NCBI GenBank assembly: GCA_903926385.1
Contig: CAIYIS010000010.1
Span: forward strand, 7,060-71,059
From: an uncultured Bacteroidota bacterium
GTDB lineage: Bacteria; Bacteroidota; Bacteroidia; 2-12-FULL-35-15
DNA: 64,000 bases
Reading direction: 5' to 3'
Shown here in pieces: positions 20,359 through 56,185 of this stretch. The translations under genes were made by a program, and so were the position numbers. The notes under the pieces were generated by a model. It was not told the origin of the DNA, made no database searches, and saw only the letters and a program-made list of their open reading frames with translations. The stretch's first letter is position 1; every line of letters starts with the position of its first letter.

Positions 20359-20430
20359 GGCATCGTAGTTCAATGGATAGAATAGAAGTTTCCTAAACTT
20401 TAGATACAGGTTCGATTCCTGTCGAAGCCA
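20359..20430 (+). tRNA. tRNA-Arg (anticodon CCT)
   Basis: Hand-folded cloverleaf: acceptor GGCATCG/CGAAGCC (one A-A mismatch at 4:69), D-arm GTTC-AATGGATA-GAAT, anticodon arm GAAGT-TTCCTAA-ACTTT, 4-nt variable loop, T-arm ACAGG-TTCGATT-CCTGT, discriminator A. CCA is not encoded. Confidence 0.8.
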
Positions 20431-20483
20431 CTAAAAAATAATATTTAAAGACTGATAGTGATTAATTCAGCAAAACATTAAGA

Positions 20484-40595: not shown

Positions 40596-40661
40596 ATATT
40601 TCACAGGCCTTTCTTATTTTTTAAAGTATTAATAATTGAACTAATTAATTACCTTTACACC

Positions 40662-41030
40662 GCAAGCCGTTCTATCGCTGCCTTTCTGATTACTGAAAGG
40701 GAGAGGAAAGTCCGGGCAACACAGAGCATCCCACTTCCTAACAGGAAGGATTCGTAGCAATATGAAGACAGCAAGTGCCACAGAAAATTACAGCTTTGCA
40801 GTAATGCGGAGTGATGGTGAAAATGTGAGGTAAGAGCTCACGGAAATGATTGGTGACAATTGTTTCGGGTAAACCTTGGGAGTTGAAAGACCAAATAAAC
40901 CGAAGCTTAAGAGCTGCTCGCTCAATTTCGGAGGGTAGGTTGCTTGAGTTGATTGGTGACAGTTAACCTAGATAAATGATGGAAACCTTTATGCTTGCAT
41001 AAAGGCACAGAACCCGGCTTACAGGCTTGC
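40662..41030 (+). ncRNA. rnpB: RNase P RNA, bacterial type A
   Basis: Universal blocks GAGGAAAGTCCGGGC (about 40700) and ACAGAACCCGGCTTA (about 41007). P1 pairing GCAAGCC (40662-40668) with GGCTTGC (41024-41030). T-run after the 3' end. Confidence 0.9.
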
Positions 41031-41034
41031 TTTT

Positions 41035-41976
41035 TTAGTTTTTCTTTCCGAGAAAATTAATCAGTATTTTGTTAAACAACTTAGGGTTTTCGAGTGCAGG
41101 CATGTGTGCGCAGTTGGGCATAACTTCCAGTCTGGCTGTTGTTCCGATATGCTGTTGCAATTCTTTTCCGATGTGCAATGGAATTAATTTATCGGCTTCT
41201 CCCCAAACCAATAATACCGGAATGTGGAAGAAATAATTTTGATTGGCATAAAGGTCTCTTGTGCTGTTTAGGGATTTTAGTAGTTCTTTCTTATCCTCAA
41301 CTTGCAAATTATACATGCTGTAAAACATTTCCTTTAAAATAAAGTTGGGTACAAATGGAGGTTTATGATAAGCTACCGCTAACAGTTTTTTTAATCCTTT
41401 ATATTGATTTGGTATTAACAGTTCCTCTAGTGAACTAACGTTGAATTCGCTTTTAGCTATTGTCTCATCTTTGTCAGAAAAATATTTTACGGGACTATCA
41501 ACAAGAACCAGTTTTTCTAATCTTCCTGAGTTTTGTAAGCCTAACTCGGCTGCAACAAGTCCTCCGTAAGAAACACCGCAAGCATTGAATTTATCAACAT
41601 GAAGCGTATCGAGTAATAATTGTAACGCTTCTACCTGATTCTTTATGGCATATACTTTAGGATTTGAATTGCTTTTGCCAAAGTAAAGAAGGTTAGGAAG
41701 AATCAAACGATAATTTACTGACAATTCCTGCACTTGTTGATACCATTGAAATTCTGTACTTGCCCCAAAGCCATGAATCAGTATTAGTACAGGTTTATTT
41801 TCCTCCGAATCCCAATAGTTAATTTTATAACCCGCTAGTTCAATTTCCTTTTGCTTTAATCCACTTTTAGAGAATTGACGAAAAATATATTTATTTAAGC
41901 TTTTTGGCACACTGCATGAATTAAACAAAATAAGAATTAAAAAAAGAATGAAAGTTGCTTTAATGTAGTTATACAC
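41035..41976 (-). CDS. Alpha/beta hydrolase
   Basis: Signal/anchor N-terminus, HGFGAS oxyanion region, nucleophile elbow GVSYGG, C-terminal CAHMP (catalytic His). Confidence 0.8.
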   Translation of the reverse strand: MYNYIKATFILFLILILFNSCSVPKSLNKYIFRQFSKSGLKQKEIELAGYKINYWDSEENKPVLILIHGFGASTEFQWYQQVQELSVNYRLILPNLLYFGKSNSNPKVYAIKNQVEALQLLLDTLHVDKFNACGVSYGGLVAAELGLQNSGRLEKLVLVDSPVKYFSDKDETIAKSEFNVSSLEELLIPNQYKGLKKLLAVAYHKPPFVPNFILKEMFYSMYNLQVEDKKELLKSLNSTRDLYANQNYFFHIPVLLVWGEADKLIPLHIGKELQQHIGTTARLEVMPNCAHMPALENPKLFNKILINFLGKKN

Positions 41977-42174
41977 AGTTGTGTGACAATTCGTTTTTGT
42001 AAAATTAGTGTATTTTTTATTAAGTATTCGAATTGGACAATTTGAAAAGCTAAATGTGATATTTAAGTATAAAAAGAACTATCTTCTTTTAAAATATTCC
42101 CTCTCCGTTACACCGTGCTCCTTGTCATTTGTAAAGACAGATTATTTGTGTTACCGTTTTTTTAAGTAAGTGGT

Positions 42175-42864
42175 TTATTTAATTAGGTTGGCTACCTGCT
42201 TTTCGTAGCTTCTTCCTATAGGTATTTCCTTATCTTGTAGGTGAATTATTTTATTACGCACATTCTCTATACGCGCAATAGGCACAATAAACGACCGGTG
42301 AACACGAATGAAGTTTTTTTGTGATAATTTATCTTCCATTGCTTTCATCGTAATCCGTGTTGTAACTCGTTTCTGACTCACCAAATAAATATGAATGTAA
42401 TCAGCCAGTGATTCGATATACAAAATGTCAGCTAAGGCGATTTTGACAAGGCTGTAATCTACGCGAACATAAATATATTGTTGGTCCTTCAAATCTTTAT
42501 TGCTCTGATAATAATAGTAATCTCTTGCTTTGTTTACCGCTACTTCGAATCTTTCGTATGTAAACGGTTTAACAATAAAATCAACAGCACTCAAATCAAA
42601 ACCATCAAGTGCATACTTGCTATGAGCTGTAATAAAAATAACCATCGAATTTTGCTCAATGGCTTTGTAAAGTTCAATCCCTGTTATTCCAGGCATGTCT
42701 ATATCTAAAAAGAGCAGGTCTACCGGAAACTTAAGAAGATGTTTTGCTGCATCGTCTGGTTTTGTAAATGTTTTTTCCAGTTGAATAAATTCAACTCGTT
42801 TGCAAAAGTGTTCAATCACTTTCAACGCCATTGGGTCGTCATCTATTGCAATTGCTTTAATCAT
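42175..42864 (-). CDS. LytTR-family response regulator (second copy, operon-terminal)
   Basis: Receiver (IAIDDD...LFLDIDMPGITG) plus a LytTR output domain (ILYIESLADYIHIYL...FIRVHRSFIV). Its start overlaps the upstream stop by 4 nt. Confidence 0.9.
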   Translation of the reverse strand: MIKAIAIDDDPMALKVIEHFCKRVEFIQLEKTFTKPDDAAKHLLKFPVDLLFLDIDMPGITGIELYKAIEQNSMVIFITAHSKYALDGFDLSAVDFIVKPFTYERFEVAVNKARDYYYYQSNKDLKDQQYIYVRVDYSLVKIALADILYIESLADYIHIYLVSQKRVTTRITMKAMEDKLSQKNFIRVHRSFIVPIARIENVRNKIIHLQDKEIPIGRSYEKQVANLIK

Positions 42865-44267
42865 GGTGTTATGGCTATGCCAATTAAAAATAAGTTATTT
42901 GTAAAAGTAAAATCACTGTATCGGGAACCTCTGTTTTCTAAACCATAGTTAATATAAACCCCCAGTTTATTATTAAAGTGATAATTTGCCCCAAGAGAAA
43001 ATTTGTCCTTTATAAAGAAGGGAGTATTGTTTACATAATATCCAGCATACTCCACCACATTTCCTTTAGTATTGTGCAGATAGTCGGCAGTAATACTTAA
43101 TTTTTTTAAAGGAACAAATGAAAGGTAAGGAGAATAAGATATAGAATTTGTTGCACCGAATGACTGAGCCCAATGTAAATATCCAATACAACCAATATTA
43201 AAAAAGTTATTTGCGAATGGATGATATTCTAATGAAGCACTAAATTGATATTCATTATGCCCTTTATTCAAATTAGCCAGTGCTCCTGCAGAACAGTCTA
43301 TGTAAATAAATGATTTTTTTAATGAGGAGGAAACAATGAAACTCGATACAGCAGGAATTGAATTCGAATTGCCCGGAACATTTTTAGTTACTTGATGAGC
43401 ATAAATTGTGTCAGGAGGAGGCACTACAGGAGGAGGCCCAAGTGTAGTTGGTTGAATATAATTAATTGTATAATCATCTGTTTTTAAATAATCCTTTTCA
43501 TAAATCCACTGTCCGCTCATTGAAAAGAGGAAATTGTTCTTTAAAGGAATGTTGGCTTTTAAATAATAATGATATTGCTTTATTGTGATGGAGCTTTTTA
43601 CAGTATCAGTTAACTTGATAATGCTGTCAGGCAAAGGTGCTCCAGGATATGCGGGAAGCAAATGAACCGTTTCATCGTTATGAACTTCGGTATTTCCGAA
43701 TTCATTTTGACTATTATAACTAAACGAATGAAATAAGGAGACACGATTTTTTGCATAATGCATTAGTCCAACCTCAAAGTAATTAGCAGTACTTATACTA
43801 TCATGATTGCTGCTAAGTTTTACAGCCCCTTCAATATTTGCATAGGTTAATTTCGGTGAGTTACTTGTACCTATCTTTTTCGCCAAGGTTTCTCTAAACG
43901 ATTTGCTTAACCACCTAGCTTCTTCATATTTTTCATCAAAGATCAAACAGTAATACAAGTAACTTGTAGCATCTTCATCACCTTCGTTATAGAGAAGAGC
44001 TTTCTTAAAATGTAATTCCGCTTTGCGGTATTTTTCCATTTCATAATTAGCTATACCCGCCCTCATACGAATAAAATAATAGTCAAAGCCCTTATCTATG
44101 ACTATATCGGTGTAACGAACAAGTTCTTTCCAGTTCTTGTTATTGTACAATTTCAACGATACAGATTCCACCTGAGCGGTTGTCAGGGTATCGTTAGGTT
44201 TTGCCTTAATTTCGGCTGCTATTAAAAACAAAACAAATACTATCCAATATTTACCGCCTCTATGCAT
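42861..44267 (-). CDS. Secreted TPR-like / beta-strand-rich protein (possible outer-membrane barrel), function unknown
   Basis: Signal peptide (YWIVFVLFLIAAEIKA), ~130-aa TPR-like helical region, internal PPPVVPPPD, then alternating-hydrophobicity strands to the C-terminus. Confidence 0.5.
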   Translation of the reverse strand: MHRGGKYWIVFVLFLIAAEIKAKPNDTLTTAQVESVSLKLYNNKNWKELVRYTDIVIDKGFDYYFIRMRAGIANYEMEKYRKAELHFKKALLYNEGDEDATSYLYYCLIFDEKYEEARWLSKSFRETLAKKIGTSNSPKLTYANIEGAVKLSSNHDSISTANYFEVGLMHYAKNRVSLFHSFSYNSQNEFGNTEVHNDETVHLLPAYPGAPLPDSIIKLTDTVKSSITIKQYHYYLKANIPLKNNFLFSMSGQWIYEKDYLKTDDYTINYIQPTTLGPPPVVPPPDTIYAHQVTKNVPGNSNSIPAVSSFIVSSSLKKSFIYIDCSAGALANLNKGHNEYQFSASLEYHPFANNFFNIGCIGYLHWAQSFGATNSISYSPYLSFVPLKKLSITADYLHNTKGNVVEYAGYYVNNTPFFIKDKFSLGANYHFNNKLGVYINYGLENRGSRYSDFTFTNNLFLIGIAITP

Positions 44268-46423
44268 TTATCTTTTTCTTTAATTGTAAATTTAATTATT
44301 TTGTTATTGGCTAATTCTATCTCAAAAAGGATTTCTTTTTTGCGCCCACCCATCAATTGGGTATTCACTTCCGAGTTTATTATAATTTCATTTGGTGCCT
44401 GTGTTTCGTCAGCGTGTTTGTAAATTGCTTTATAATTTGCTTTCAGAAATATATAAAACGGGGCTACAAAATCCTGTATAATTTTTAATGCGTTGTTGCC
44501 ATAGGTTTCTACAGGAAGATTTTCTTCGAGTTTCAATTCGGGGAAATAACTTAACAATATTTTATTCGCTCCAAGATAGAAGTAGTAAAGCAGGGAGTCC
44601 TTTGTGCCGACATAACTTGTAAAGTAAAACAGAGTATCATTATTGGTAAAATAAGCAATCGCCTTAGTTTTGTTACAGTATAAATAAGAGTTGTTATATG
44701 AGTCTGTACAAACCAGCCAGCTTTCTGTACTTTTATTATTTCCGTTTTTTACTTCAAATTTTAATTCCATTCCGGGAATAAAATGGAATGCTTGTTTTAT
44801 CAATGGAGAAACAGAAGGACGGAAAATAGTTTCCTTTTCGTTTGGTAATTCAAACGAATGTAACAAATACCCCTCTTTTTCTTTTGTTACATAATAACTC
44901 AACGGGTATTTTAAAGTTTTAGAGCCAATCTCTTTTGTTTCCTGTAATTGAAAATGAATGTGAGGTTCGGGAGAACGACCGGAACTGCCGCACATGGCTA
45001 TCACATCACCTTTGTTCACATAATCTCCAATTTGCACCTTAAAACTATCTTTTTTGATATGACTTATTTTACTGAATAAATATTCTGAGTGTTTTATGAC
45101 AATGGTATTCCCCCAATTTTCATTTAAGTTTACATCACCTATGGTATTATCTTCGACACCATCAACCAACGCAACAACAGTTCCATGTGCCGGTGCTAAA
45201 ACAGGTAATCCGTAACAATAAAAATCGGTTAGATCATCACCCGGCAAGCGGAATGTTCTTTTGTGTTCATCTGTCACAACAAAATCCCAGGCAAATCTGA
45301 AATCATTTTTGTGAGTAATCTTTCCGTCATGAGCTTGCGAAACGTGCCATTCTCCATAAAAAGGAAGGTGAATGTTTACCAACGTGTGCTTTTTGAAACG
45401 CTCTAAATGAAAATCGAAACCGTACAGATTTTTCTCCGGTGAAAACAATTGGTATTTTACAACATAAAAATATTTGATGATATACCTGTTATTAAGTGTA
45501 ATCAATACGATGAGCACAAAAAAACTGAATGGAAGCGAGTACAAAGGCAAATGATAAGGTTCAATTATTTTTGCAAATGCAGTAATAATGAATGCCTGAA
45601 TGGGAGTTGAAAAAATTACAAGTAGGTAAGTTGCAGCAGAAGGAATAAGAAAAAAACCTCCAATAGCAATTGCTGTAAGTATATAATTAATTGCAATAGC
45701 GTTGTAGCCAGATTCAATTGAGTTGTGTTGAAAAATGAAATAGAAAACATATCCGGAAAGAAATCCAATGAAGGACAAAGTAAATGCTATGCGAGAATAA
45801 ATCAGCAAGCCAACTGTTATCAATATGCCGGAAAAAATATTGTGTTGAAAAAAGATTGCTCCCATTGATTTGAAATAAGAAACAAACAATGGAGTTAAAG
45901 CAAAAGAATCTAACAACTTGCGGAGGCTCACAAATGAGATAGAGAAAAGTCCGAATAAATCACCCGAGCAACAACCGGCAGGTGTATTCAAGTCTAAATT
46001 TGTAAATGATTTTATTCCAAACAGAATAATCCATATCGAAAAAATATATGGCAAGCTTAGCATCGGCAGGCTGTATCGACTGAAATAGGAAAATAACCAA
46101 ACACTCATTAACAATGTAATGACCGTAGCCACAAAAAGCAAAAGCAAAAAGGGCAATGAGATTTGGCAAAAGGCGCCCAGCGTTAATCCTGTGAGTAAAA
46201 CATTAAAAGAATAGGAACCAGCTTTTGTAAACGCAGGATTAAATCCAAGCAGAGAAGAAAGCATTAGTGAAAATACAACGCACACTAATCCGGATATTCC
46301 CGCATTCAGATTCACAAAGGAGGAAACTATCAACAGTATACCAAACCATCGGTAATCTGAAAAGAACACCTGACTGTAACTGTTGATAATTCCTTCTTTT
46401 ATATTTTTGAAATATTGACTCAC
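44240..46423 (-). CDS. Urea-transporter-like membrane domain fused to an M23 (LytM) metallopeptidase domain plus a ~230-aa unknown C-terminal domain
   Basis: N-terminal ~330 aa polytopic, beginning GIINSYSQVFFS (urea-transporter family opening motif). Central GDVIAMCGSSGRSPEPHIHFQLQ matches the M23 signature GSTGRSTGPHLHFE. I recognise nothing in the C-terminal region. Confidence 0.7.
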   Translation of the reverse strand: MSQYFKNIKEGIINSYSQVFFSDYRWFGILLIVSSFVNLNAGISGLVCVVFSLMLSSLLGFNPAFTKAGSYSFNVLLTGLTLGAFCQISLPFLLLLFVATVITLLMSVWLFSYFSRYSLPMLSLPYIFSIWIILFGIKSFTNLDLNTPAGCCSGDLFGLFSISFVSLRKLLDSFALTPLFVSYFKSMGAIFFQHNIFSGILITVGLLIYSRIAFTLSFIGFLSGYVFYFIFQHNSIESGYNAIAINYILTAIAIGGFFLIPSAATYLLVIFSTPIQAFIITAFAKIIEPYHLPLYSLPFSFFVLIVLITLNNRYIIKYFYVVKYQLFSPEKNLYGFDFHLERFKKHTLVNIHLPFYGEWHVSQAHDGKITHKNDFRFAWDFVVTDEHKRTFRLPGDDLTDFYCYGLPVLAPAHGTVVALVDGVEDNTIGDVNLNENWGNTIVIKHSEYLFSKISHIKKDSFKVQIGDYVNKGDVIAMCGSSGRSPEPHIHFQLQETKEIGSKTLKYPLSYYVTKEKEGYLLHSFELPNEKETIFRPSVSPLIKQAFHFIPGMELKFEVKNGNNKSTESWLVCTDSYNNSYLYCNKTKAIAYFTNNDTLFYFTSYVGTKDSLLYYFYLGANKILLSYFPELKLEENLPVETYGNNALKIIQDFVAPFYIFLKANYKAIYKHADETQAPNEIIINSEVNTQLMGGRKKEILFEIELANNKIIKFTIKEKDKCIEAVNIG

Positions 46424-46433
46424 AAAAACGTTA

Positions 46434-47798
46434 TTACAATTTAAATGTTTTTAAATATTTTGGCATTACCTCATCGCTCTGAATACTATTAAGTGTTTCG
46501 CGATTTCTGATCAGATGCGCTGTTTCGTTTGTGTCTATTAAAACAATAGCAGGCCGCAGCGCTATAAATTGCATCCATTGAGTCATATTGTAGGCGCCAA
46601 CTGAATGTACCACGACATTATCATTTCGCATTAACGGAGGCAAGGTAATATTTTCCCGTATAACATCTATGTTCATGCACAGAGGGCCATATAAAACCGA
46701 GTCTTCGGTATGCTGTCCGAATTCCTGAGCCGGGGAAATTTTGTGGTCGTACCAAAATGAGGTGAATAGTATGTTTACACCAAAATCCATAATTGTTGCC
46801 CGTCTTCCATCAGCCAACCTCTTGTTCGAAATCACACTTCCCAGCAAATATCCTGCATCATCGATTAAAGCTCTTCCTGTTTCGAGTATTAATAAAGGCA
46901 ATTCAGTTTCCGTAAAACCGGCATTTAATATCGAAGTTGTAATTGCTTCGGCAAATTGATCAAAGGTTGGAGAAGTATCTACACCTTGCAGGTACGAACC
47001 TTTGAGCGTATTTTTAGAAGCAAATCCTCCTCCCATATCAATGTACTGAATATTTTTTTTGAACTTCTTTTTTACGGCCATAGCCAAATCAGAGAGTTTG
47101 GCTGCGGCAATTCCATAAGCACTTGGAGCCAGCATAAATGTACCGATGTGAGAATGCAACCCAACTAAATCCATTTTATCATTGAGCATAATTTTATTAA
47201 TCGCATCCCAAGCTTGTCCATTCTCATAGTTAAACCCAAATCTGTCCCACATAGGATAAATACCTGTATCCATGTTTACACGAATAGCTACACGTGGACG
47301 TTTTTTTGAATTGTTTGCAATTTCCATTATCATATACAACTCATCCAGATGGTCGATGTGCAAAAGCGAATCATTTTTAATGGCTAATGTTAAATCCTCT
47401 TCTGATTTGTCGGGGCCGTTGAAAATTATTTTGCTTCCCGGCACTCCATTCTGCAAAGCTTTGTGGTATTCAAATCCGGAAACCACTTCGGCCCAGGAAC
47501 CCAATTGATGAAATACATTACACACTGCATTCATATAATTGGTTTTGTATGACCACGCGAACTGCACCTTTGGATAACGATTCTTAAATGCTCTGTTAGC
47601 ACTTTGGTATGTATCACGAATGGTTTGTTCTGAAATCACGAACAGCGGAGAACCATATTTAGCTAACAATTCCTTTACTGAATTACCATCAATATGTGTT
47701 ACAGGTTTGTATTCTGTTTTGGTTCCGAATTTATTCATTACCCCTGTATTCAATCTTTGAATAATAGGTCTTTCGTATTGCAATTTTTTTGTTGACAT
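46434..47798 (-). CDS. PLP-dependent decarboxylase, Orn/DAP/Arg decarboxylase family 2 (alanine-racemase fold)
   Basis: FAWSYKTNY (PLP-Lys position), DMGGGFAS (GGGF phosphate loop), ETGRAL (EPGR-equivalent), YGPLCMNID (active-site Cys). 454 aa. Confidence 0.8.
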   Translation of the reverse strand: MSTKKLQYERPIIQRLNTGVMNKFGTKTEYKPVTHIDGNSVKELLAKYGSPLFVISEQTIRDTYQSANRAFKNRYPKVQFAWSYKTNYMNAVCNVFHQLGSWAEVVSGFEYHKALQNGVPGSKIIFNGPDKSEEDLTLAIKNDSLLHIDHLDELYMIMEIANNSKKRPRVAIRVNMDTGIYPMWDRFGFNYENGQAWDAINKIMLNDKMDLVGLHSHIGTFMLAPSAYGIAAAKLSDLAMAVKKKFKKNIQYIDMGGGFASKNTLKGSYLQGVDTSPTFDQFAEAITTSILNAGFTETELPLLILETGRALIDDAGYLLGSVISNKRLADGRRATIMDFGVNILFTSFWYDHKISPAQEFGQHTEDSVLYGPLCMNIDVIRENITLPPLMRNDNVVVHSVGAYNMTQWMQFIALRPAIVLIDTNETAHLIRNRETLNSIQSDEVMPKYLKTFKL

Positions 47799-47814
47799 TG
47801 TTTTTAGTTTTTAA

Positions 47815-48864
47815 TTATAATTCCCCTAGGGTTGATATTGTTTCAAATTCTTTTAAAGATACTATCATATCGTACGAATAGCGAATAAACATCTTTCCGA
47901 TATCGTATTTTTTAAATGGTTTTACAGGTTTGCCCAAAGCCAGCTGAACCAAAGCATCCGGATGGTTTTGCCCGCAACCAACTGCCAAATATACCCAAGC
48001 AGGAAAGCGGGGATTTATTTCCAAAAGATAGTAGTCGCCTTTAACTGTTTTTATAATTTCCAGCTCCATACCACCCTTCCATTTAGTAGATTTAATAAGC
48101 TGTTTGGTCATAGCCATCAAGTTTTCATCTTCAATCGAAATTCCTGACCATGCTTTTCCTTTATCCGTTATATATTGTTTACGCATCGGTACAGCACCTA
48201 TCGTGTTTCCTTTTCCATCACCCAATGCAGTAACATTTACTTCCTGTCCCGTAACAAATTCCTGAATGATGATGGGTAATCCCCATTTCGCACTGATCTT
48301 ATTGAAATAAGTATGTGCCTGTTCCTGGTTATATGCAATGTATGCGTCATAAAATTTACCTTTCACCACCATTGGATAAGTGAACTCACTAACAAGAGAA
48401 GGAATAGATGCTGCGCTGAATATAACCTTCCCGTATGGAACTTTTATCTTATGCTTCTTACCATAAGCAGAAAGATTGGCTTTATGCCTGTCTTCAAACT
48501 GAGCAAGAGTAGGTACAAAAACGTTAATGTTCAATTCCTTTTTTAATTTGTCCGAAAGCGTAATAAAATTAAATAATTCAGCATCGAAGTTCGGAATGAT
48601 AACATCAATTTTTTCCACGGAATGAATATACTGCAAACGTTCCATGAGACTTGCTTTACCGGCAGAAGGCAATGGAATCTGATAGGTTTTATCCACCAGT
48701 TCGTGCATGTAAATTCCGGGCTCCAATGCTTCGTATGATAATCCGACAATGCGGACATCAAACACTTTGCTTTCTTTCAACGCCCTGATAACAGGTATTC
48801 CCGGCCCTGGGCTGTCTATATTGTTAAGCCCGGTAACAGCCACATTAATTTTTTTCTTTCTCAT
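47815..48864 (-). CDS. ATP-grasp ligase (carboxylate-amine/peptide ligase type)
   Basis: MVVKGKF...IIQEFVTGQEVNV...YLLEINPRFPAWV follows the ATP-grasp K...E...E-x-N-P-R layout. Its start overlaps the PqqD-like gene by 20 nt. Confidence 0.75.
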   Translation of the reverse strand: MRKKKINVAVTGLNNIDSPGPGIPVIRALKESKVFDVRIVGLSYEALEPGIYMHELVDKTYQIPLPSAGKASLMERLQYIHSVEKIDVIIPNFDAELFNFITLSDKLKKELNINVFVPTLAQFEDRHKANLSAYGKKHKIKVPYGKVIFSAASIPSLVSEFTYPMVVKGKFYDAYIAYNQEQAHTYFNKISAKWGLPIIIQEFVTGQEVNVTALGDGKGNTIGAVPMRKQYITDKGKAWSGISIEDENLMAMTKQLIKSTKWKGGMELEIIKTVKGDYYLLEINPRFPAWVYLAVGCGQNHPDALVQLALGKPVKPFKKYDIGKMFIRYSYDMIVSLKEFETISTLGEL

Positions 48865-49105
48865 AGCTTTCTGTCAAATTATGTTTATCTAACATGTTAA
48901 TGAAATCATAACTGTCTTTTTCAAATGTGGCTCCATCTACGTTATACTTTTTAGTTATCGCAGATTTTATCTCCCCTCTGCTCTTACCTTCTTTGAGCAT
49001 AGTAATAATTTCCAATCCTATCGGATTAGTAGTAAATGAATCTCCTGTAGAAGGATCGAAGACAAATCCTGATTCGCTAAGAGCGATGTTCTTTTTAATT
49101 TTCAT
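48845..49105 (-). CDS. PqqD-family small protein (RiPP-recognition-element-like)
   Basis: 86 aa. FTTNPIGLEIITMLKEGKSRGEIKSAITKKYNVDGATFEKDSYDFINMLDKHNL follows the PqqD winged-helix pattern (ligand-strand, helix, 'eI...l...y.v......D...Fi..L...'). Confidence 0.6.
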   Translation of the reverse strand: MKIKKNIALSESGFVFDPSTGDSFTTNPIGLEIITMLKEGKSRGEIKSAITKKYNVDGATFEKDSYDFINMLDKHNLTESYEKEKN

Positions 49106-49113
49106 AATTTTAG

Positions 49114-51348
49114 TTATTTACTGTTTTTACTATTCACATGTTTGGCCAACACAATTTCAAGTTCTTTTATTGCTTTTTCGCAAACACTTTTTATTTGCAC
49201 AAAATCTTTATCTATAAGGTTCATGGCGGCTTTTGTTTCCGAAAGCGTTTCCATATTCGCTAATGGTTTTAGTAAGGGTCTTAGTCCCATAAACCCTACT
49301 GATGTTTTCATACGATGAGCAATAGATTTTACAAGTTCATGGTCGTTATTCTTTATTGCTGTTTCGATAGCACTAATATCAACAGGAGTTTGTTCCAGAA
49401 AAAGCTCTATCATTTCGATAATAAATTCATTGCTGCCCTTGGCCATCTCATATAATTCGCCCATGTTTACAATTACATCATTTTCTCCAAACAATTTCTG
49501 AGGCTTGGTTTCCTTATCCTTTGAACCTTCAGTAATCGAAATGTTCATTACATACTTACTTATCAGATTATATAATTCAAGTTCCGTGAAAGGTTTTGAA
49601 ATGTAATCGTTCATTCCGTATTGCAAACATTTTTCTTTTTCACCGGGCATAATATGGGCTGTCATGGCTATGATGGGTATAGTTAATCCGAGTTCATTGC
49701 GGATAATTTTCGAAGCGGAATATCCATCCATTTTTGGCATCTGCATATCCATTAAAATTAAATGGTAACTATTTTGCTTTAGTTTTTCTATCGCCACAGC
49801 TCCGTTTTCTGCTATATCTATCTTTAACCCGAATCCTTTTAAAATTTCTGAAGCCAGTTTCTGATTCATCAAATTATCCTCTACCAGCAATATTGATATT
49901 TTGTTGTTTTGTGTCCCAAAGGTTTCTATAACATTATTTTCCTTTTTTTCTGTTACAATTTCATTGCTCACAGGATAGTTCATGATCACGGTAAATTCAG
50001 AACCTTGGCCTTCTTTACTTTTTAAAGTTATTTCTCCATGCTGAATTTCAATTAAATTTTTTACGATGGACAATCCCAATCCTGTACCGCCAAATTTTCT
50101 TGTTGTTTCGGAATTGCCCTGATTAAATCGTTCAAATACTTCAGCGATTTTTTCGGACGGAATTCCAATCCCTGTGTCTGTAATTCTGAAAATTATTTTC
50201 GCCTCATTACGTTCTATACTTTTCAATTCGCATTTAACAGTCACCTTGCCATTATTTGTAAATTTAATTGCATTGTTTGTTAAGTTTACCAAAATTTGTG
50301 TTAATCGGGTAGGGTCACCGTATACGCTTTTCGGTATCCTATCATCAATCACTATTTCAAAATCGATATTCGCTTCTTTAGCTTTTTCTGTAAACATAAG
50401 TTTTAGAGAACTTACTGAATCAGCAATACTAAATGGAATTTTTTCAAGCCTCACCATTCCTGCTTCTATCTTGGAGAAATCAAGAATGTCATTTATTAGG
50501 GAAAGCAAATTAGTGCCACTGCTTTTAATGGCTGCCAAGTATTCTGTTTGTGCTTCATCCAACTTTGTTTTTTGCATTAATCCAGAGAAACCAAGAATGG
50601 AATTCATAGGTGTGCGTATCTCGTGACTCATGTTTGCCATAAACTGTTCTTTAAGCATTGCGTTTTCGTCTGCTTTATGTTTAGCCGTGCGTAATTCTAT
50701 TTCCAGTCTGTTTCGAACATTAATATCTCTGAACAAAATAATAATCATAGCCAGGAAGGCGAGAATACCTACCACTATTTCACCGTAACTCCATCGCTGC
50801 GAAACTTGCAAAAGCTTGTTGCTTTTCTTAATAAGAGATACAGAAGCAAGACTCAAATTATTATTTATCTCCACCAGCACTTTATTTATATCACTAACTA
50901 TTTCGGAGCCTTCTTTGGAACCAGTAGCACTTTCATTTAGCCCGGGAATATTTACCTTATGCGACAAATCTTTCCCTTCCATTAATTTTTTATAAGTCAA
51001 ATCTTTTAGTTTGGTAAACAAACTTGACTCTTTATTTCCGTTTAAATATTGGCCGAGCGTATCTAACTCAGAAGTTATCTGAGTTTGCTTCTGAATGTAC
51101 TCTCCAAGGATTTTTGCATCACCTGTTATACTGTAGCCACGCTGATAAATTCCGAGTGTGTCAATATTGTTACGAAACAATTTCATCGACTCGGATATTT
51201 TATAGGAAGCATAGAGCTTTTTATTGTTTTCAGACAATTGGTTGATGTATCCGTTGGCATTATACGCTATAAACAATATCAAACAAAAGCTGATGATAAA
51301 GCTGGTGATGATTATTAGTTTGGTATAACTTTTTAGTCCGAATTTCAT
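49114..51348 (-). CDS. Hybrid sensor histidine kinase (CHASE3-like sensor, HisKA, HATPase, receiver, HPt)
   Basis: TM plus a CHASE3-like N-terminal region and a second TM. H-box SHEIRTPMNSILG. DTGIGI and GGTGLGLSIV. Receiver ILLVEDN...LILMDMQMPKMDG. C-terminal HPt HRMKTSVGFMG. Confidence 0.85.
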   Translation of the reverse strand: MKFGLKSYTKLIIITSFIISFCLILFIAYNANGYINQLSENNKKLYASYKISESMKLFRNNIDTLGIYQRGYSITGDAKILGEYIQKQTQITSELDTLGQYLNGNKESSLFTKLKDLTYKKLMEGKDLSHKVNIPGLNESATGSKEGSEIVSDINKVLVEINNNLSLASVSLIKKSNKLLQVSQRWSYGEIVVGILAFLAMIIILFRDINVRNRLEIELRTAKHKADENAMLKEQFMANMSHEIRTPMNSILGFSGLMQKTKLDEAQTEYLAAIKSSGTNLLSLINDILDFSKIEAGMVRLEKIPFSIADSVSSLKLMFTEKAKEANIDFEIVIDDRIPKSVYGDPTRLTQILVNLTNNAIKFTNNGKVTVKCELKSIERNEAKIIFRITDTGIGIPSEKIAEVFERFNQGNSETTRKFGGTGLGLSIVKNLIEIQHGEITLKSKEGQGSEFTVIMNYPVSNEIVTEKKENNVIETFGTQNNKISILLVEDNLMNQKLASEILKGFGLKIDIAENGAVAIEKLKQNSYHLILMDMQMPKMDGYSASKIIRNELGLTIPIIAMTAHIMPGEKEKCLQYGMNDYISKPFTELELYNLISKYVMNISITEGSKDKETKPQKLFGENDVIVNMGELYEMAKGSNEFIIEMIELFLEQTPVDISAIETAIKNNDHELVKSIAHRMKTSVGFMGLRPLLKPLANMETLSETKAAMNLIDKDFVQIKSVCEKAIKELEIVLAKHVNSKNSK

Positions 51349-51384: not shown

Positions 51385-51771
51385 TCAGTTCTGTCTATTT
51401 GGTTTTTTAGAGTTCATAATATGTTCTAAGACTCCCGTCAAATATGACATTTCAAATGGTTTATGAATAAAGTAATTAAATTTTATTCCGCTTCTTTTCA
51501 TTAACTCATTCCCTTCATCCAACGAAGAGATAACAATAACTGATGGCATCCATTTAGAATAATAGTTTTTAAGGTGATCTATAAATTCCGAACCTGAAAT
51601 ACCCGGCATCATCATGTCGCAGATAATTACATCCACATCTCTTTCCAATTGAAGAAACTTTTGAGCCTGCTCTCCGCTCATTGCTGAGTAAACAGTATGT
51701 CCTTCTTCTGTTAAGTTATGATTTATTACTTTGTGAATAATCATATCATCGTCTATCAATAGTATTTTCAT
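51385..51771 (-). CDS. Stand-alone receiver (CheY-like) response regulator
   Basis: 128 aa. ILLIDDD...VIICDMMMPGISG...HKPF. No output domain. Confidence 0.85.
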   Translation of the reverse strand: MKILLIDDDMIIHKVINHNLTEEGHTVYSAMSGEQAQKFLQLERDVDVIICDMMMPGISGSEFIDHLKNYYSKWMPSVIVISSLDEGNELMKRSGIKFNYFIHKPFEMSYLTGVLEHIMNSKKPNRQN

Positions 51772-51850
51772 ATTCTCCGGTTGTTAATATTGGTTTTGTT
51801 TGGTGATGTAAAAGTAGAGTAAATACAAACTGCCTTGACAAGATTTTCGG

Positions 51851-51880
51851 TAAACAGGAAAATATAATGGCTAAACAGGA
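51851..51880 (-). promoter_or_regulatory. Putative LytTR-regulator binding site: perfect 9-bp direct repeat with a 12-bp spacer
   Basis: TAACAGGA-type repeat TAAACAGGA at 51851-51859 and again at 51872-51880 (start-to-start 21 bp). It lies in the 143-bp gap between the LytTR gene stop (51915) and the receiver gene start (51771), 80-109 bp upstream of that start on the minus strand (where it reads TCCTGTTTA). Confidence 0.5.
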
Positions 51881-51914
51881 GAAAGAAAAAGGTAGTGAAT
51901 GATTACCTTATTGA

Positions 51915-52604
51915 TTACAATAAATTCAAACGTTTCAGCAGGGTTGGTTTTTGTGTATCGCCAATAGGAATGGGCTGTTTGGAGACGTACACAGTATTTT
52001 CTTCAACGGTATCCACTTTATCGAGGGGTAAGATGTAAGAGCGGTGGACACGAAAAAACTTGGAAGCCGGCAGCTCTCTTTCCAGTGCGCTTAGGGTATA
52101 GTGTATGGTATGTTTTTTGTCGGGAGTAAAAATAGTAACATAATCGCCCAAGGCCTGAATATAGAGTATATCCGCGATAAGCAACTTGGTCATGATTCCT
52201 TTTTCGCGAATAAAGAAATATTCTTTATCGAGCTGTAAGGGTTTGTTACTACTTTCAAATATTTCTTTTGCTCTTAAAACCGACTTCAGGAATCGCTCTT
52301 CCTTAACCGGTTTTACAAGAAAATCGACCACATTGACCTCGAATGCTTCCACAGCATAATTGGCGTTGGCAGTAATGAGAATAACCAATGGCTGATGAAC
52401 AATCGTTTTAAGAAACTCGATACCATTCATGTGGGGCATTTCCACATCGAGGAGGAGCAGGTCTATTTTTTCTTTATTTAAAATATCGGTGGCCTCTATT
52501 ACATTTTCGCAATCGCCTGCAAGGTGAAGAAATTCGATGTCGCGCACAAAATGCTTGAGCACTGTGCGCGCCATTTTATTATCATCAACTATTAAACATC
52601 TCAT
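51915..52604 (-). CDS. LytTR-family response regulator (first copy)
   Basis: Receiver (LIVDDN...LLLDVEMPHMNG) plus a LytTR domain (ILYIQALGDYVTIF...FFRVHRSYILP). Confidence 0.9.
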   Translation of the reverse strand: MRCLIVDDNKMARTVLKHFVRDIEFLHLAGDCENVIEATDILNKEKIDLLLLDVEMPHMNGIEFLKTIVHQPLVILITANANYAVEAFEVNVVDFLVKPVKEERFLKSVLRAKEIFESSNKPLQLDKEYFFIREKGIMTKLLIADILYIQALGDYVTIFTPDKKHTIHYTLSALERELPASKFFRVHRSYILPLDKVDTVEENTVYVSKQPIPIGDTQKPTLLKRLNLL

Positions 52605-52610
52605 AAATAC

Positions 52611-53216
52611 TTACTGCACTTTTTTGATGGCAGATTTGGCATCTTCGGATTGAGGATTATATTCCAAGGCCTTTGTGAAATATTTTTTGGCTTCGGGTTT
52701 CTTTCCTTGGTCGAGTTGAATTTTTCCGGCTAGCATGTTACTATCGAAATCGAAGGGATACGTTTTAATTACTTTGGAAACAAATGCCATTGCATTCACG
52801 TAATCTTTTTTGGAATAATATATATACCCTACACGGTAATTGGCGATAGAATTATTTGGGTCGAGTTTTAGAATGTCCATGTATATGTTTAAAACATTGG
52901 TCATATTGCCTAATGCAACAAGAGGAAGTATTTGGCCAAAACGAGCTTCGATGGATGAAGGCTCGGCTTCTAGTGCTTTTTTATAATACATATCAGATTT
53001 TACATAATCCTTGCTTAAATATTGCAACCAGCCCAAACGAAGATTTATTTCGTAGGAATCTTGTTTTAATGCCACCAAAGCTTCGATGGCTTTTGCATAC
53101 TGTGTATCGTATTCGAAGGAATAACTTTTGGAAAATGCTGTTTCGGCATTATCTTGTGCTCTGACTCCGCCACAAATTAGTGCAATGACGAAGATTAACG
53201 TGATCTTTACTTTCAT
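52611..53216 (-). CDS. Secreted TPR repeat protein
   Basis: Signal peptide followed by 4-5 TPR units (YYKKALEAEPSSIEARFG, YMDILKLDPNNSIANYRVG, FTKALEYNPQSEDA). It ends 6 nt before the LytTR gene start. A minus-strand TAATTTTG -7 box lies at 53252-53259. Confidence 0.8.
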   Translation of the reverse strand: MKVKITLIFVIALICGGVRAQDNAETAFSKSYSFEYDTQYAKAIEALVALKQDSYEINLRLGWLQYLSKDYVKSDMYYKKALEAEPSSIEARFGQILPLVALGNMTNVLNIYMDILKLDPNNSIANYRVGYIYYSKKDYVNAMAFVSKVIKTYPFDFDSNMLAGKIQLDQGKKPEAKKYFTKALEYNPQSEDAKSAIKKVQ

Positions 53217-53385
53217 ATTTATTTTTTGAAATTAATATTGATTACAGGCTGCAAAATTAGTTATTTTTATCTACTACCTTTTGTTTACTACTCAACTTCG
53301 ACCAATGCCGTGTTTCCTGCGAAATGCGGAATCAGATTAAACGGATACGCACGACTGAGGTTATTAAAGCTGTAATTGAACTACC

Positions 53386-53943
53386 TTAATAAACAAATGG
53401 GATTAACCGGTAAGTATTTTGGCAATATGTTTGGTATTCCTTGCCAAACTGCTCGTTCAGCACTTTTTCTTCAATGCGAATGCGATAAAGAAGTGCAGCC
53501 AAAACAAGAAAAACGACTACCATAGCACTCAGATAATTGTTTAGAGAAATACCGAAACCAGCAAATGAGAGAAGCATTCCAGTGTACGAAGGATGACGAA
53601 GGAGGCTGTATAAACCATCTTTTTTTATGCGATGATTGTGCCGAATGGTTACATCAACTGTAAACATTTTACCTAGCTGCCAAACTGCTGTAAAACGAAT
53701 GATCATTCCGAGTAAAATGATGGTCATGCCGGTGTAATACATGAGGAAGGAGGGTAATATATCTAACGATGTGTATAGTGCACAACTTATGCCTGCAGCA
53801 ATAGCTGCTGTGCTTGTTATCCATCCGGTTAGCATAGAGCCATTGTCTTTTTTTTGAAGGTCTTTTGCGCCCGAACGTGTGAAACTGTTGAGCATAATTT
53901 CGGACAAAAGCCATATCAGATATATCAGATTTAAATTTATCAT
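53386..53943 (-). CDS. Isoprenylcysteine carboxyl methyltransferase (ICMT/PEMT) family membrane methyltransferase
   Basis: Multi-TM protein. GLYSLLRHPSYTGMLL and RIRIEEKVL are the ICMT-family motifs. Confidence 0.75.
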   Translation of the reverse strand: MINLNLIYLIWLLSEIMLNSFTRSGAKDLQKKDNGSMLTGWITSTAAIAAGISCALYTSLDILPSFLMYYTGMTIILLGMIIRFTAVWQLGKMFTVDVTIRHNHRIKKDGLYSLLRHPSYTGMLLSFAGFGISLNNYLSAMVVVFLVLAALLYRIRIEEKVLNEQFGKEYQTYCQNTYRLIPFVY

Positions 53944-54088: not shown

Positions 54089-56185
54089 CTAATGTATCAC
54101 CACCAGTTTCTCAGTTCTTACAACTGCATTTTTATCGGCTATTTTACAGAAGTATATTCCATTTTTTAGTGCTGAAATGTTGATGATATTTCCTCCATTG
54201 TTTGCTTTTTCCTGCATCAGTATCTTTCCGGTGATGTCGGTAATGGTAATAATATCAGGCATTTTGTATCCATGCGCAAATTGAATTTTTACAGTTTCAT
54301 TAGCAGGATTTGGGTACATAGAGATAAAATAATTCTCTTCTGTTTTTACGTTTACGGTAACCACAGGGGGGGACGGACAATTTGGATTACCGGGAATATT
54401 AGCATCCAACCAAGCAAGTCTTCTCGAAATCCAGTCTTTGAATGCCTGCACTTCTCCCAGATAAGTACCCGGATCTGGCTCAATTTCGGGAGTTCCATTA
54501 TTATAACCTAGTGTAGCCCATTTCTGGAAATGCCTTGCCTGAGAGGCATTAAGGTAAACTGTCATAGAATCGATATAGCCGTACAAAGCCGAATCGCTGA
54601 GAATTGTGGTTCGGAAATTATCCCAGCGGCATCTGAAATTATTTTGAAAAGTCGTGTCGTCCATCATGCGCACCATCCAACCGGTCGAGTTGTTGTCGGG
54701 GCCACAATCGTTCACTTTATAACTCCATCCCGAACCATCGGTGGCAGCAAAAATAGAACATTCGTTAATGTCTTTCCATGCCCAGTCGAAATCCCATACA
54801 GGGCCTGCCTTTAAAGGTGAGATGTATCCTGTGCTGTCTTTTCCTTTATGATAAAACTGACTCTTTTTAAATCCGTCACCGTTACGCGAAAGTTCGTTTA
54901 CAATAAGGTAGTCAATAAAGGAATTCATGCCTATATATTTTCTGTAGCCTGTTGCCGAGTCCTGAAAATTGGGGCCATACAAGGCTGTTTCAAAATCGTT
55001 GATGAAGGCTTGAATGTATGTTTTTTGAGTGTCGGTTATGTTTAGCACTTTCGGATATTCATATAGCAGGTGAGTATTAAAAGTGGGATGATCTATGGGA
55101 TGATACTGCAGCTGCCAGCCATCTGTACCTCCTCCCCACAAGTTGTTTTGAAGTATATAGCCTCCGGTAACATTTAAACCTGTGTTTTCTGTACTGTCCA
55201 AATTAGCAATGGACACACGGTTACTATCGCGTTTTATTTTTTCGCTCAACACGTATATACCTTCATAAGTCCCGTTTAGCAATACTTCTACAAGGCGAGT
55301 ACGTGGTGCATAATGGCCCATTTTGCGCGACAAATGGTAAGCGAGTGTGTTTCGAATAAATACTTTGTCGTTCCAGTTCGAAATCAAACACCAGTCGTGT
55401 TCTGCAGGCATCGAAAGTATCGATGCGTCAGCCTGTACATTACTAGTATCGCGAGTTTCGAAACCATATGGAACCTGAGGATACCAAGATGATGATGCTC
55501 CACGAATTTCAATTCCTATTTTTCCGTTGTAATCATTTATTGAATCTGTTGGGTGGTTCATCATTCCCGGACCATTATAAATAATGCCCATGGTTCCGTC
55601 TATTTTTGGATTGTTAGGAATCGCCACTCCGTTCGTATTTATGATAACGATAGGTAAATTCGTTGCCGAGAAATTAATGTAACCAGCCGGAGTGTTACTG
55701 AACGTAAGACTCCAGGAAACAACATTTCCGATCAATCCGGTGGTTTGGTCGCGAACCATCAGATTCCAAACATTGTTAGGATTCTGATTATTATTAAAAC
55801 TGGCAATTGTATTTTCGGGTTTGTAAATTCCTGTAAAAGGAGCCACTCCTGATGTAACGGGAACTGTGGATGTGTCGTGAAATATGGTGTTGGTATAATT
55901 GGCTCCTGTGCCCCCGTTAAAGGTAGAGAGAAAATATATAGAACCATCTGGCGCTTGTAATTTAATACGAAGCTGATTGTCGGATGGGTGATTAATATTT
56001 ATAGTAACATACTCCAGTCCGAACGATACGGCATCAATGCTGCTCGGCAACCCCGAAACGGTGATGGGATAATAACAATATTGGTTGTTGTCTGTAATGG
56101 CACCTCCGGCAGTGTTGGTAAAGGTTTGAGCACTTATTGCAAAAGCAAAAAGAATGAAACTAATCAGTAGTAAATGTTTTTTCAT
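54089..56185 (-). CDS. CotH-family protein with N-terminal P-domain-like module and T9SS C-terminal domain
   Basis: Signal peptide. ITININHPSDNQLRIKLQAPDGS (proprotein-convertase P-domain-like). Central CotH-like region (LLNGTYEGIYVLSEKIKRDSNRV...). C-terminal MYPNPANETVKIQF...GIYFCKIADKNAVVRTEKLVVIH. Confidence 0.7.
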   Translation of the reverse strand: MKKHLLLISFILFAFAISAQTFTNTAGGAITDNNQYCYYPITVSGLPSSIDAVSFGLEYVTININHPSDNQLRIKLQAPDGSIYFLSTFNGGTGANYTNTIFHDTSTVPVTSGVAPFTGIYKPENTIASFNNNQNPNNVWNLMVRDQTTGLIGNVVSWSLTFSNTPAGYINFSATNLPIVIINTNGVAIPNNPKIDGTMGIIYNGPGMMNHPTDSINDYNGKIGIEIRGASSSWYPQVPYGFETRDTSNVQADASILSMPAEHDWCLISNWNDKVFIRNTLAYHLSRKMGHYAPRTRLVEVLLNGTYEGIYVLSEKIKRDSNRVSIANLDSTENTGLNVTGGYILQNNLWGGGTDGWQLQYHPIDHPTFNTHLLYEYPKVLNITDTQKTYIQAFINDFETALYGPNFQDSATGYRKYIGMNSFIDYLIVNELSRNGDGFKKSQFYHKGKDSTGYISPLKAGPVWDFDWAWKDINECSIFAATDGSGWSYKVNDCGPDNNSTGWMVRMMDDTTFQNNFRCRWDNFRTTILSDSALYGYIDSMTVYLNASQARHFQKWATLGYNNGTPEIEPDPGTYLGEVQAFKDWISRRLAWLDANIPGNPNCPSPPVVTVNVKTEENYFISMYPNPANETVKIQFAHGYKMPDIITITDITGKILMQEKANNGGNIINISALKNGIYFCKIADKNAVVRTEKLVVIH

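Follow-up and report, generated by a model that had tools for sequence, protein, structure and literature searches.

Recognition elements (RREs) for ribosomally synthesized peptides with post-translational modifications (RiPPs) serve as class-independent beacons in RiPP genome mining. The gene for an 86-aa PqqD-like protein, predicted to be such an element, was found in a 64,000-nt stretch of DNA from an uncultured Bacteroidota bacterium (GCA_903926385.1, contig CAIYIS010000010.1; the whole stretch is referred to as the window), where it forms a minus-strand trio at 46434-49105 with the genes of an ATP-grasp ligase and of a decarboxylase (DC) of the ornithine/diaminopimelate (Orn/DAP) fold. 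Among the closest described systems, discrete RREs of the lasso-peptide type bind a leader motif, [Y/W]xxPx[L/V/I/F/A] (PMC13381572; PMC10368454). In these RREs an Asn at the end of beta3 holds the kink of the leader Pro, an Asp in alpha3 hydrogen-bonds the hydroxyl of the leader Tyr, and a Phe four residues past that Asp divides two pockets (PMC13381572). For the decarboxylases, it was reported that an acidic residue beside the catalytic Cys of diaminopimelate decarboxylases (DAPDCs) and ornithine decarboxylases (ODCs) binds the distal amine of the substrate, and that an Arg of the specificity helix of DAPDC (R343) binds the distal carboxylate (PMC7857480). The trio was found to be the start of a widespread conserved operon, present in Bacteroidota, Myxococcota, Nitrospinota and Rokubacteria-like lineages, and from the sequences we infer that the missing ligand of its RRE is the N-terminus of its own DC.

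Relatives were taken from a one-genome-per-species scan (at least 576 relatives, of which the best 80 loci, all from metagenome-assembled genomes (MAGs) of Bacteroidota, were analysed), from 80 metagenome loci and from 7 loci of distant lineages. The related loci were cut as 20-kb stretches, and many of the contigs are truncated.

Judged by sequence and by a structural model, the 86-aa protein is an RRE of the lasso-B1 type with conserved leader-contact residues. It matched the PqqD family (PF05402) with 37.2 bits against a cutoff of 23.4, and its best solved relative was found to be TbiB1, with a phmmer E-value of 1e-7 and approximately 38% identity over 68 residues. The AlphaFold2 (AF2) model, computed with 44 homologues and with a predicted local distance difference test (pLDDT) value of 84, presented the strand-strand-strand-helix-helix-helix order of an RRE. 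When this model was used in a Foldseek search, TbiB1 was retrieved with a TM value of 0.80 and an rmsd of 1.9 Å, followed by TfuB1 with a TM value of 0.70. The residues predicted to bind a leader, with roles assigned after PMC13381572, are N27, D64 and F68. At the N27 position, the second RRE alignment (77 sequences, the window RRE plus 76 loci) had Asn throughout, and conservation in the 78-sequence alignment of the genome loci was at least 90%; the F68 position was Phe in 75 of the 77. D64 was kept in 63 of 70 RRE-DC pairs of a first set and in 57 of 62 pairs of a second set, which contained one Glu in addition.

The sequence-only reading of this locus had considered the PqqD-like protein to be without an adjacent substrate, and had missed the sequence YERPII at the N-terminus of DC. 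This enzyme carries an extension (arm) of about 30 residues: the FslC and LysA models and the PDB alignments begin at query residues 33-35, and the arm itself gave no match against the PDB. Its consensus is M-x-K-x-x-Y-E-R-P-x-I-x-[KR]-L-x-x-G-x-x-N-K-F-G, and the peptide proposed as the RRE ligand is MSTKKLQYERPIIQRLNTGVMNKFGTKTEY. Across phyla, few segments of DC are as strongly conserved as the arm. All 81 DCs of the first sets and all 66 metagenome DCs whose N-termini are complete (147 of 147) contain the core [YF]-E-x-P-x-[IL], and a Lys located 14-16 residues past the motif aromatic was found in 80 of 81 and 66 of 66, respectively (146 of 147). No other conserved [YW]xxPx[LVIFA] lies in a terminal extension of any core protein, all others being inside folded domains, and the motif is retained in the linker of a natural ATP-grasp-DC fusion.

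The first residue of this motif and the RRE residue at the D64 position were found to covary. In the first set, the combinations of motif residue and RRE residue were (Y,D) 63, (F,S) 3, (F,Y) 3, (Y,N) 1 and (F,D) 0, with a value of 5e-8 in Fisher's exact test, and in the second set they were (Y,D) 57, (F,Y) 3, (Y,E) 1 and (Y,H) 1. Pooled, both sets gave (Y,D/E) 121, (F,S/Y) 9, (Y,N/H) 2 and (F,D) 0. Phe stands at the motif's first position only in loci in which D64 of the RRE is lost, and this direction matches the prediction of a hydrogen bond from the Tyr hydroxyl to the Asp.

All three ORFs of the trio lie on the minus strand exactly where the sequence-only reading had placed them, and the order PqqD, ATP-grasp, DC was repeated in the 80 genome, 80 metagenome and 7 distant-lineage loci. 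Since the same gene order recurs across these three kinds of loci, the adjacency of the trio is not due to chance. Beyond the trio the operon runs on, unnoticed at the time, into genes for a fusion of a urea transporter (UT)-like domain with an M23 peptidase domain, for an outer-membrane protein (OMP) candidate and for a protein of tetratricopeptide repeats (TPR). The fixed gene order, as established by tblastn and all-against-all clustering, is PqqD, ATP-grasp, DC, the UT-M23 fusion, a secreted TPR/beta-rich protein of ~440 aa and a TPR protein of ~205 aa, with the DC, UT-M23, OMP and TPR families found in 74, 62, 58 and 57 of 81 loci, respectively. Across the six genes, this order holds in 58-81 of 81 loci. 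The TPR201 family usually stands directly after the OMP gene, whereas in the window it has moved upstream, beside the regulators. Distant homologues (35-55% identity) retain PqqD, ATP-grasp, DC, the UT fusion and TPR proteins; they come from MAGs with the labels Myxococcales, Nitrospinota, Candidatus Rokubacteria and Prolixibacteraceae, from several contigs without a label and from the 80 metagenome loci. The trio stands alone in a few genomes. Natural fusions comprise PqqD-ATP-grasp, ATP-grasp-DC, tandem ATP-grasp, UT-M23 and UT-SIR2(-GNAT). None of the NCBIfam models reached its cutoff on any core protein, and PADLOC returned no match to a defence system.

The search for a precursor peptide confirmed what had been seen by eye, namely that none is visible beside the trio: none was found in the window, and none is conserved in the 80 genome loci. 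The gaps at 51772-51914, 53217-53385 and 41977-42174, earlier described as empty, are real and hold no plausible short ORF, and none of the intergenic ORFs over the whole 64-kb window was plausible as a precursor. When the ORFs of 18-130 aa from the 80 genome loci and the window operon region were clustered, with both strands included (17,566 ORFs), every conserved small-ORF cluster besides PqqD proved to be a core-gene shadow frame. For the seven distant loci the gene tables were inspected only, and no conserved small ORF stood out. A cognate precursor gene was found neither in the 80 genome loci nor in the junctions of the core genes nor upstream of the RRE gene, the 80 metagenome loci lying outside the scan. 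The junctions are short or overlapping, and the rare long gaps contain just locus-specific, repeat-derived ORFs. Short tandem peptide-like repeats (e.g., MDDRRWLIDDRRWMIDDRRW...) were observed in the long intra-operon gaps of L015 (5187-5285), L052 (3166-3312) and L073 (12563-12661); these are locus-specific and probably repeat DNA, not genes. In loci without a fused upstream regulator, direct-repeat operators were found in front of PqqD, with a Bacteroidetes-type -7 box 20-30 nt before its ATG, and therefore the transcript begins at the RRE gene.

These results bear on the possibility of a conventional scaffold-peptide or RiPP pathway whose precursor, with a YxxPx[L/I] leader, is encoded elsewhere. 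The RRE would then present the peptide to the ATP-grasp enzyme, DC would modify the appended residue and the M23 or sirtuin domain would release the product, as in the pearlins or in fosfazinomycin. RREs of this type do bind free leader peptides, scaffold-peptide pathways that make small molecules with RiPP machinery exist, the operon includes a peptidase and a transporter-like domain, and ORFs that are very short, hypervariable or unlinked may escape 20-kb loci. Such a pathway is nevertheless considered unlikely, given that no small ORF but PqqD is conserved in the 80 genome loci and none is apparent in the seven distant gene tables, that the operon begins at the RRE gene, that a perfectly conserved cognate motif is already present in cis on DC, and that the ATP-grasp and DC proteins are 64-90% identical among Bacteroidota MAGs, which is untypical of RiPP enzymes. 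On the best explanation, the operon does not represent a RiPP cluster whose precursor was lost.

The stop codon of the PqqD gene overlaps the start of the ATP-grasp gene by 20 nt, the ligase ATG lying within the last codons of the small gene, in line with the translational coupling noted in the sequence-only reading. The acidic and polar tail (...TESYEKEKN) is also present as it was described. From these traits it had been proposed that the 86-aa protein could be the scaffold itself, that is, a covalent carrier like LysW or BtrI with an amino acid loaded onto its acidic C-terminal tail, a proposal also in keeping with the precedents that join an ATP-grasp enzyme with a DAPDC-like enzyme (BtrJ/BtrK; the PDB hits of DC include 2j66 and 7ru7). 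However, among 78 orthologues neither the length nor the sequence nor the last residue of the tail is constant, its AF2 confidence is the lowest of the RRE model (pLDDT 49), and TbiB1, a bona fide lasso RRE, has a similar one (LLEGYADE versus LTESYEKE). In the window, EKEKN is an alternative-frame reading of the Lys-rich N-terminus of the ATP-grasp protein, MRKKKIN, the ...SYEKEKN tail being its other-frame image as a result of this overlap. Beyond the canonical RRE motifs, none of the Asp, Glu or Lys residues is invariant among the RRE orthologues, and three independent PqqD-ATP-grasp fusions (P0322, P0391 and P0392) leave the PqqD C-terminus without a free end. Additionally, the fold is that of an RRE, not of a zinc ribbon or an acyl carrier protein (ACP), and Pfam and NCBIfam revealed no phosphopantetheine-binding or LysW-like motif in the protein. 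The role of covalent scaffold is thus highly improbable.

For DC, the best NCBIfam match was FslC (1e-66), with a score for NF041039 of 225 bits against a cutoff of 500, and the best PDB match was the N-citrylornithine decarboxylase 7kh2 (1e-55). BtrK was among the PDB matches but weaker (1e-22), 2j66 and 7ru7 being in that list. In the alignment, Met comes directly after the catalytic Cys, matching C354-M355 of FigC, and T346 aligns with R343 of the Methanocaldococcus jannaschii DAPDC, whereas Ile and Trp stand at the positions of FigC His357 and Thr330 (FigC numbering from PMC7857480). The substrate is most likely an amino acid with a side chain ending in a neutral amide, because Met and Thr replace the acidic residue and the Arg that bind the distal amine and carboxylate, and a neutral amide is the type of product expected of an ATP-dependent ligase. 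DC probably works like FigC, though it is not a member of the FslC/FigC family. No synthetase of the NRPS-independent siderophore (NIS) type was found in the locus. The 871-aa natural fusion of ATP-grasp and DC (P0282) supports the coupling of ligase and decarboxylase.

That DC is an ordinary housekeeping LysA or ODC with unrelated neighbours could be suggested by its significant matches to LysA models and structures, but its score against the LysA equivalog TIGR01048 was 216 bits and did not reach the cutoff of 297.9. With FigC-type active-site residues, a strictly conserved gene order, natural fusions and an N-terminal arm specific to the family, this explanation can practically be discarded, in agreement with the sequence-only reading. 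The BtrJ/BtrK-like logic invoked in that reading (ligation through a side chain, followed by removal of the alpha-carboxylate) is compatible with the DC active site and is likewise FigA/FigC-like. Of the earlier interpretation, the lack of a co-encoded precursor, the non-housekeeping DC and this logic have been retained, and the 86-aa protein as scaffold has been abandoned.

The ATP-grasp ligase has more than 6,700 homologues in the databases, the top 120 at 71-99% identity, and it shares 64-90% identity with its orthologues in Bacteroidota MAGs, many of which carry no classification below phylum or class. The AF2 model (pLDDT 82) presented a standard three-domain ATP-grasp fold, for which biotin carboxylase, 2pn1, PylC, an L-amino-acid ligase and PurD were the nearest folds; graspetide ligases, LysX and RimK were absent from the top 50 structural neighbours. 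Sequence and profile searches against the PDB likewise returned generic matches only. The protein is fused to PqqD in P0322 and to DC in P0282, and in other phyla a tandem double ATP-grasp (~710 aa) or a degenerate second copy was found. In sirtuin-type loci, a protein of 290-370 aa without a Pfam hit lies between ATP-grasp and DC (L081 4980-5852, L082 4229-5110 and L087 10079-11188). It is a truncated or degenerate ATP-grasp paralogue with pre-ATP-grasp and C-terminal motifs, and it corresponds to one half of the ~710-aa tandem proteins.

The architecture of the operon spans the envelope. In the UT-M23 fusion, the UT domain occupies residues ~10-310, the M23 domain ~350-500 and a C-terminal domain ~520-727. 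The UT domain matched PF03253 over its full length (167.8 bits), and its first ~305 residues aligned at full length to residues 16-301 of the Desulfovibrio transporter dvUT (3K3F) with 2e-18. Both UT signatures are kept (LPMLSLPY and LPLYSLPF), with Ser instead of the Thr of LPxxTxPF; against the TIGR03441 equivalog a value of 110 was obtained with a cutoff of 274.6, so that urea as the substrate is not implied. In the M23 domain, at least 95% of 61 orthologues keep H371, D380, H445, H455, H487 and H489, the last two of which form the HxH motif. The place of M23 after the UT domain is taken, in Rokubacteria-like and Nitrospinota loci, by a full-length sirtuin (4e-41), alone or together with GNAT. 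Because sirtuin and GNAT at the same position need NAD+ and acetyl-CoA, the UT-fused domain must face the cytoplasm, and the M23 domain would then be, unusually, a cytoplasmic peptidase. The ~200 aa at the end of the fusion (residues ~520-727; 44240-44860, minus strand) gave no Pfam or NCBIfam match and are poorly conserved. The OMP gene is kept downstream of UT-M23 in 58 loci. TPR hits, marking an N-terminal TPR region, were found in 39 of 45 members of its family, with scattered weak hits to beta-barrel porins in the C-terminal region, and the match of its profile against the PDB was confined to the TPR part.

With an M23 domain, a DC that falls in the DAPDC clade and a Ddl-like ATP-grasp, the operon might also be taken for a module that edits peptidoglycan or muropeptides by remodelling stem peptides, with the RRE binding the stem peptide. 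M23 enzymes cut cross-links to DAP or Lys side chains, an ATP-grasp D-Asp ligase acting on peptidoglycan precursors is known, and envelope-stress-type regulators are encoded nearby (ECF sigma, CpxP-like and LytSR). Against this, the M23 domain is cytoplasmic and replaced by sirtuin and GNAT in other phyla, DC is devoid of the Arg that contacts the distal carboxylate of DAP and of the acidic residue that contacts its distal amine, and the RRE pockets fit YxxP leaders, not stem peptides with D-amino acids. Such a module is therefore very unlikely.

The reading put forward here, tentatively and as something quite possible but short of probable as a whole, is that the RRE docks the decarboxylase onto the ligase. 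A lasso-B1-type RRE, translationally coupled to the ATP-grasp enzyme and in some lineages fused to it, would take Y-E-R-P-x-I at the extreme N-terminus of DC as its ligand, clamping the flexible arm to the ligase and giving a ligase-DC complex. The ATP-grasp enzyme would use an amino acid's side chain for amide formation, and the FigC-like DC would then strip the alpha-carboxylate from the tethered amino acid, by analogy with FigA/FigC, SbnH and BtrJ/BtrK. The product may be passed to a cytoplasmic amide hydrolase on the UT-like channel (M23 here, sirtuin with or without GNAT elsewhere), which would process it, and may have the TPR/beta-barrel pair of the outer membrane as its exit, with LytTR or AraC-type regulators in control.

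Several points weigh against this docking reading. The seven non-Asp cases of the first covariation set belong to one clade and may represent one or few evolutionary events, and an alternative role of the arm is that of a structural element in this DC subfamily. Nor is the need for a separate RRE explained by docking. The fold search with the ATP-grasp model gave generic neighbours only and did not indicate the substrates, the first zinc motif of the M23 domain is atypical (H371 lies nine residues before D380, not in HxxxD), and the P0282 fusion has Arg at the position of the conserved Lys. Finally, export through the UT domain, as opposed to import, is an assumption.

A further, doubtful but not negligible explanation is that the arm is a protein-borne swinging carrier with Lys23 as the acceptor of the ligation. 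The RRE would position Lys23, which is 15 residues past the leader Tyr; in a lasso precursor, the cleavage site and the core are at about that distance from the leader Tyr. The side-chain carboxylate of an amino acid such as Glu or Asp would be ligated to the epsilon-amine of Lys23 in the ATP-grasp site, and DC would decarboxylate the tethered residue in cis. Repeated cycles could yield a chain of oligo- or poly-omega-amino acids, which the tandem ATP-grasp variants would fit. A sirtuin or M23 domain would free the product at the mouth of an amide-selective UT channel, and export would be achieved by a TPR/beta-barrel pair of the polymer-secretion type. Sirtuins act as N-epsilon-acyl-lysine deacylases, M23 enzymes cleave amides at the side chains of DAP or Lys, and Lys23 as the acceptor would explain that these unrelated domains replace each other as release enzymes. 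Other chemistries of the arm were considered and set aside: a graspetide-like cross-link among K, T and E of NKFGTKTEY, since Glu and Thr are unconserved outside Bacteroidota, and the N-terminal alpha-amine of DC as the acceptor, since the ATP-grasp-DC fusion has the motif internally.

Table 1. Features of the conserved operon and of its regulators in the window, with the Pfam scan covering 14 window genes.
Feature	Coordinates	Strand	Basis
RRE (PqqD family, predicted lasso-B1 type), 86 aa	48845..49105	-	PF05402, TbiB1 similarity, AF2 model
ATP-grasp ligase, 349 aa	47815..48864	-	PF15632 + PF02655
Orn/DAP-fold pyridoxal phosphate (PLP) decarboxylase (DC), 454 aa, putative FigC-like active site	46434..47798	-	PF02784 + PF00278
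N-terminal extension (arm) of DC, residues 1-30	47709..47798	-	outside FigC and LysA family models
Leader-like motif Y8-E-R-P-I-I13, proposed RRE ligand	47760..47777	-	translation checked
N22-K23-F24-G25, candidate contact or acceptor residue K23	47724..47735	-	translation checked
UT-like inner-membrane domain + M23 fusion, 727 aa	44240..46423	-	Pfam UT 4e-49, M23 9e-15
Secreted 468-aa TPR/putative beta-barrel protein (OMP)	42861..44267	-	signal-peptide-like N-terminus, synteny
Secreted 201-aa TPR protein, sixth conserved member	52611..53216	-	Pfam TPR hits
LytTR response regulator	51915-52604	-	Pfam
Stand-alone receiver	51385-51771	-	Pfam
CHASE3 hybrid histidine kinase	49114-51348	-	Pfam
Second LytTR response regulator, operon 3' end	42175..42864	-	Pfam; position kept in window-type loci

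The set of LytTR regulator, receiver and CHASE3 hybrid kinase was found only in window-type loci (the window itself (WIN), L001, L002, L014, L027, L033 and L049), the other loci presenting AraC-like regulators, LytS/LytTR, or an extracytoplasmic function (ECF) sigma factor with a CpxP-like protein. Among L003-L070 (e.g., L004, L013, L015, L041 and L053), repeats were observed 60-130 nt upstream of the RRE gene: in loci with AraC-like regulators a direct repeat, TTTATAACA-N~12-TATAACA, and in those with LytTR regulators the sequence CCGATACAT-N~12-CCGATA. A Bacteroidetes-type -7 box, TAnnTTTG, follows the repeats in several loci (e.g., L004). From their sequences, the repeats before the RRE gene look like regulator-specific operators of one operon. 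In the window, two 21-nt tandem direct repeats with a spacing of 21 nt are present at 51837-51878 (minus strand ...CTGTTTAGCC... / ...CTGTTTACCG...), upstream of the gene for the stand-alone receiver, which precedes those of the hybrid kinase and the RRE. Such phasing is usual for pairs of LytTR operators, and the operon is flanked by two LytTR regulators. A scan for sigma-70 promoters and terminators gave results that were not above the shuffled expectation.

Other features of the window were also recorded. A bacterial class A RNase P RNA (RF00010, 254 bits) lies at 40659-41037 on the plus strand and fills the gap at 40596-41034, just beyond the alpha/beta-hydrolase gene of the operon; its 3' end and the end of that convergent ORF share 3 nt. 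The 698-aa protein encoded at 54089-56185 on the minus strand combines a proprotein-convertase P-domain, a CotH kinase domain and a C-terminal sorting domain of the type IX secretion system (T9SS), and is therefore a secreted CotH-family kinase; its gene is not conserved beside the operon in other loci. Between the CotH and TPR genes, at 53386-53943 on the minus strand, an ICMT/PEMT-family membrane methyltransferase is encoded, which is missing from this place in most related loci. The only tRNA of the window is a tRNA-Arg (CCT) at 20359-20431 on the plus strand.

The operon is carried by many environmental Bacteroidota, and its RRE belongs to a large family, covering thousands of homologues, at least 576 species-level genomes and several phyla, whose beacon points to no peptide gene. 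If the ligand is indeed the tail of an enzyme, leader-RRE recognition would have been co-opted for the assembly of enzymes with one another or for a protein-borne carrier arm, and the 'orphan' RREs of mining studies would gain an explanation. A carrier arm, if true, would represent a categorically new mode of carrier-mediated biosynthesis and a new use of RREs. The operon also joins cytoplasmic amide chemistry to a UT-like channel fused to a peptidase or sirtuin, with a dedicated outer-membrane protein. We know of no described system that uses an export architecture of a UT-hydrolase fusion with a dedicated OMP. A literature search on PqqD, ATP-grasp, decarboxylase, urea transporter and M23 turned up no description of such a system.

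Compared with the lasso RREs (TbiB1 and TfuB1/FusB1) and with the LppB RRE of linear polyphosphorylated peptides, the 86-aa protein shares the fold, with 34-38% identity to TbiB1. The leader-holding Asn, Asp and Phe of the lasso RREs are conserved here too, and a matching motif is found within the operon. Unlike in lasso clusters, the scan for a precursor gene found none, and neither a B2 transglutaminase-like protease nor an asparagine-synthetase-like cyclase was found in the 14 window genes and the related loci; here it is a 454-aa enzyme that bears the motif, with an ATP-grasp protein as partner. In the graspetide clusters, a precursor with a core of Thr/Ser/Lys and Asp/Glu is encoded alongside, whereas none is adjacent here, and no MdnB/C-type ligase was among the top 50 folds. 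The LysW/LysX system also has a small protein gene beside an ATP-grasp ligase, and a hydrolase could free the product in this operon, but the small protein presents an RRE fold without a conserved C-terminal Glu or a zinc ribbon.

Scaffold-peptide pathways (the pearlins, such as 3-thiaglutamate and ammosamide, and fosfazinomycin with FzmZ) reuse RiPP recognition for a small molecule on a polypeptide handle. A hydrolase then regenerates this handle. These pathways employ a dedicated short peptide and tRNA-dependent or asparagine-synthetase-like ligases, whereas here the sole candidate handle is the N-terminus of an enzyme. Borosins of the OphMA type have a recognition or core segment within the enzyme polypeptide, with a core that is C-terminal, variable and excised as the product. 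The DC arm, in contrast, lies at the N-terminus and is strongly conserved from phylum to phylum, so that a functional arm is favoured over a product.

The closest characterised relative of DC is FigC of Francisella rhizoferrin biosynthesis (FigA/FslA, a NIS synthetase; FigC/FslC; and FigB, an exporter), with which it shares the Cys-Met dyad, the Thr of the specificity helix and the logic of side-chain ligation, decarboxylation and export. The differences are an ATP-grasp enzyme instead of the NIS synthetase, the presence of an RRE, and a UT-hydrolase fusion with TPR and OMP proteins as the candidate exporter. Butirosin biosynthesis (BtrI/BtrJ/BtrK) similarly pairs an ATP-grasp enzyme with a decarboxylase of the DAPDC fold acting on a tethered amino acid, but no ACP or phosphopantetheine site was found in the window operon or the related loci, and the match to BtrK was 1e-22 compared with 1e-55 for FigC. 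What defines each of the compared systems is absent from the operon, be it a precursor, a B2 or C enzyme, an ACP, a LysW-type carrier or a NIS synthetase. The best explanation is a conserved trans-envelope operon without a described counterpart, whose parts resemble, on the one hand, the B1-leader recognition of lasso peptides and, on the other, the chemistry of FigA/FigC or BtrJ/BtrK.

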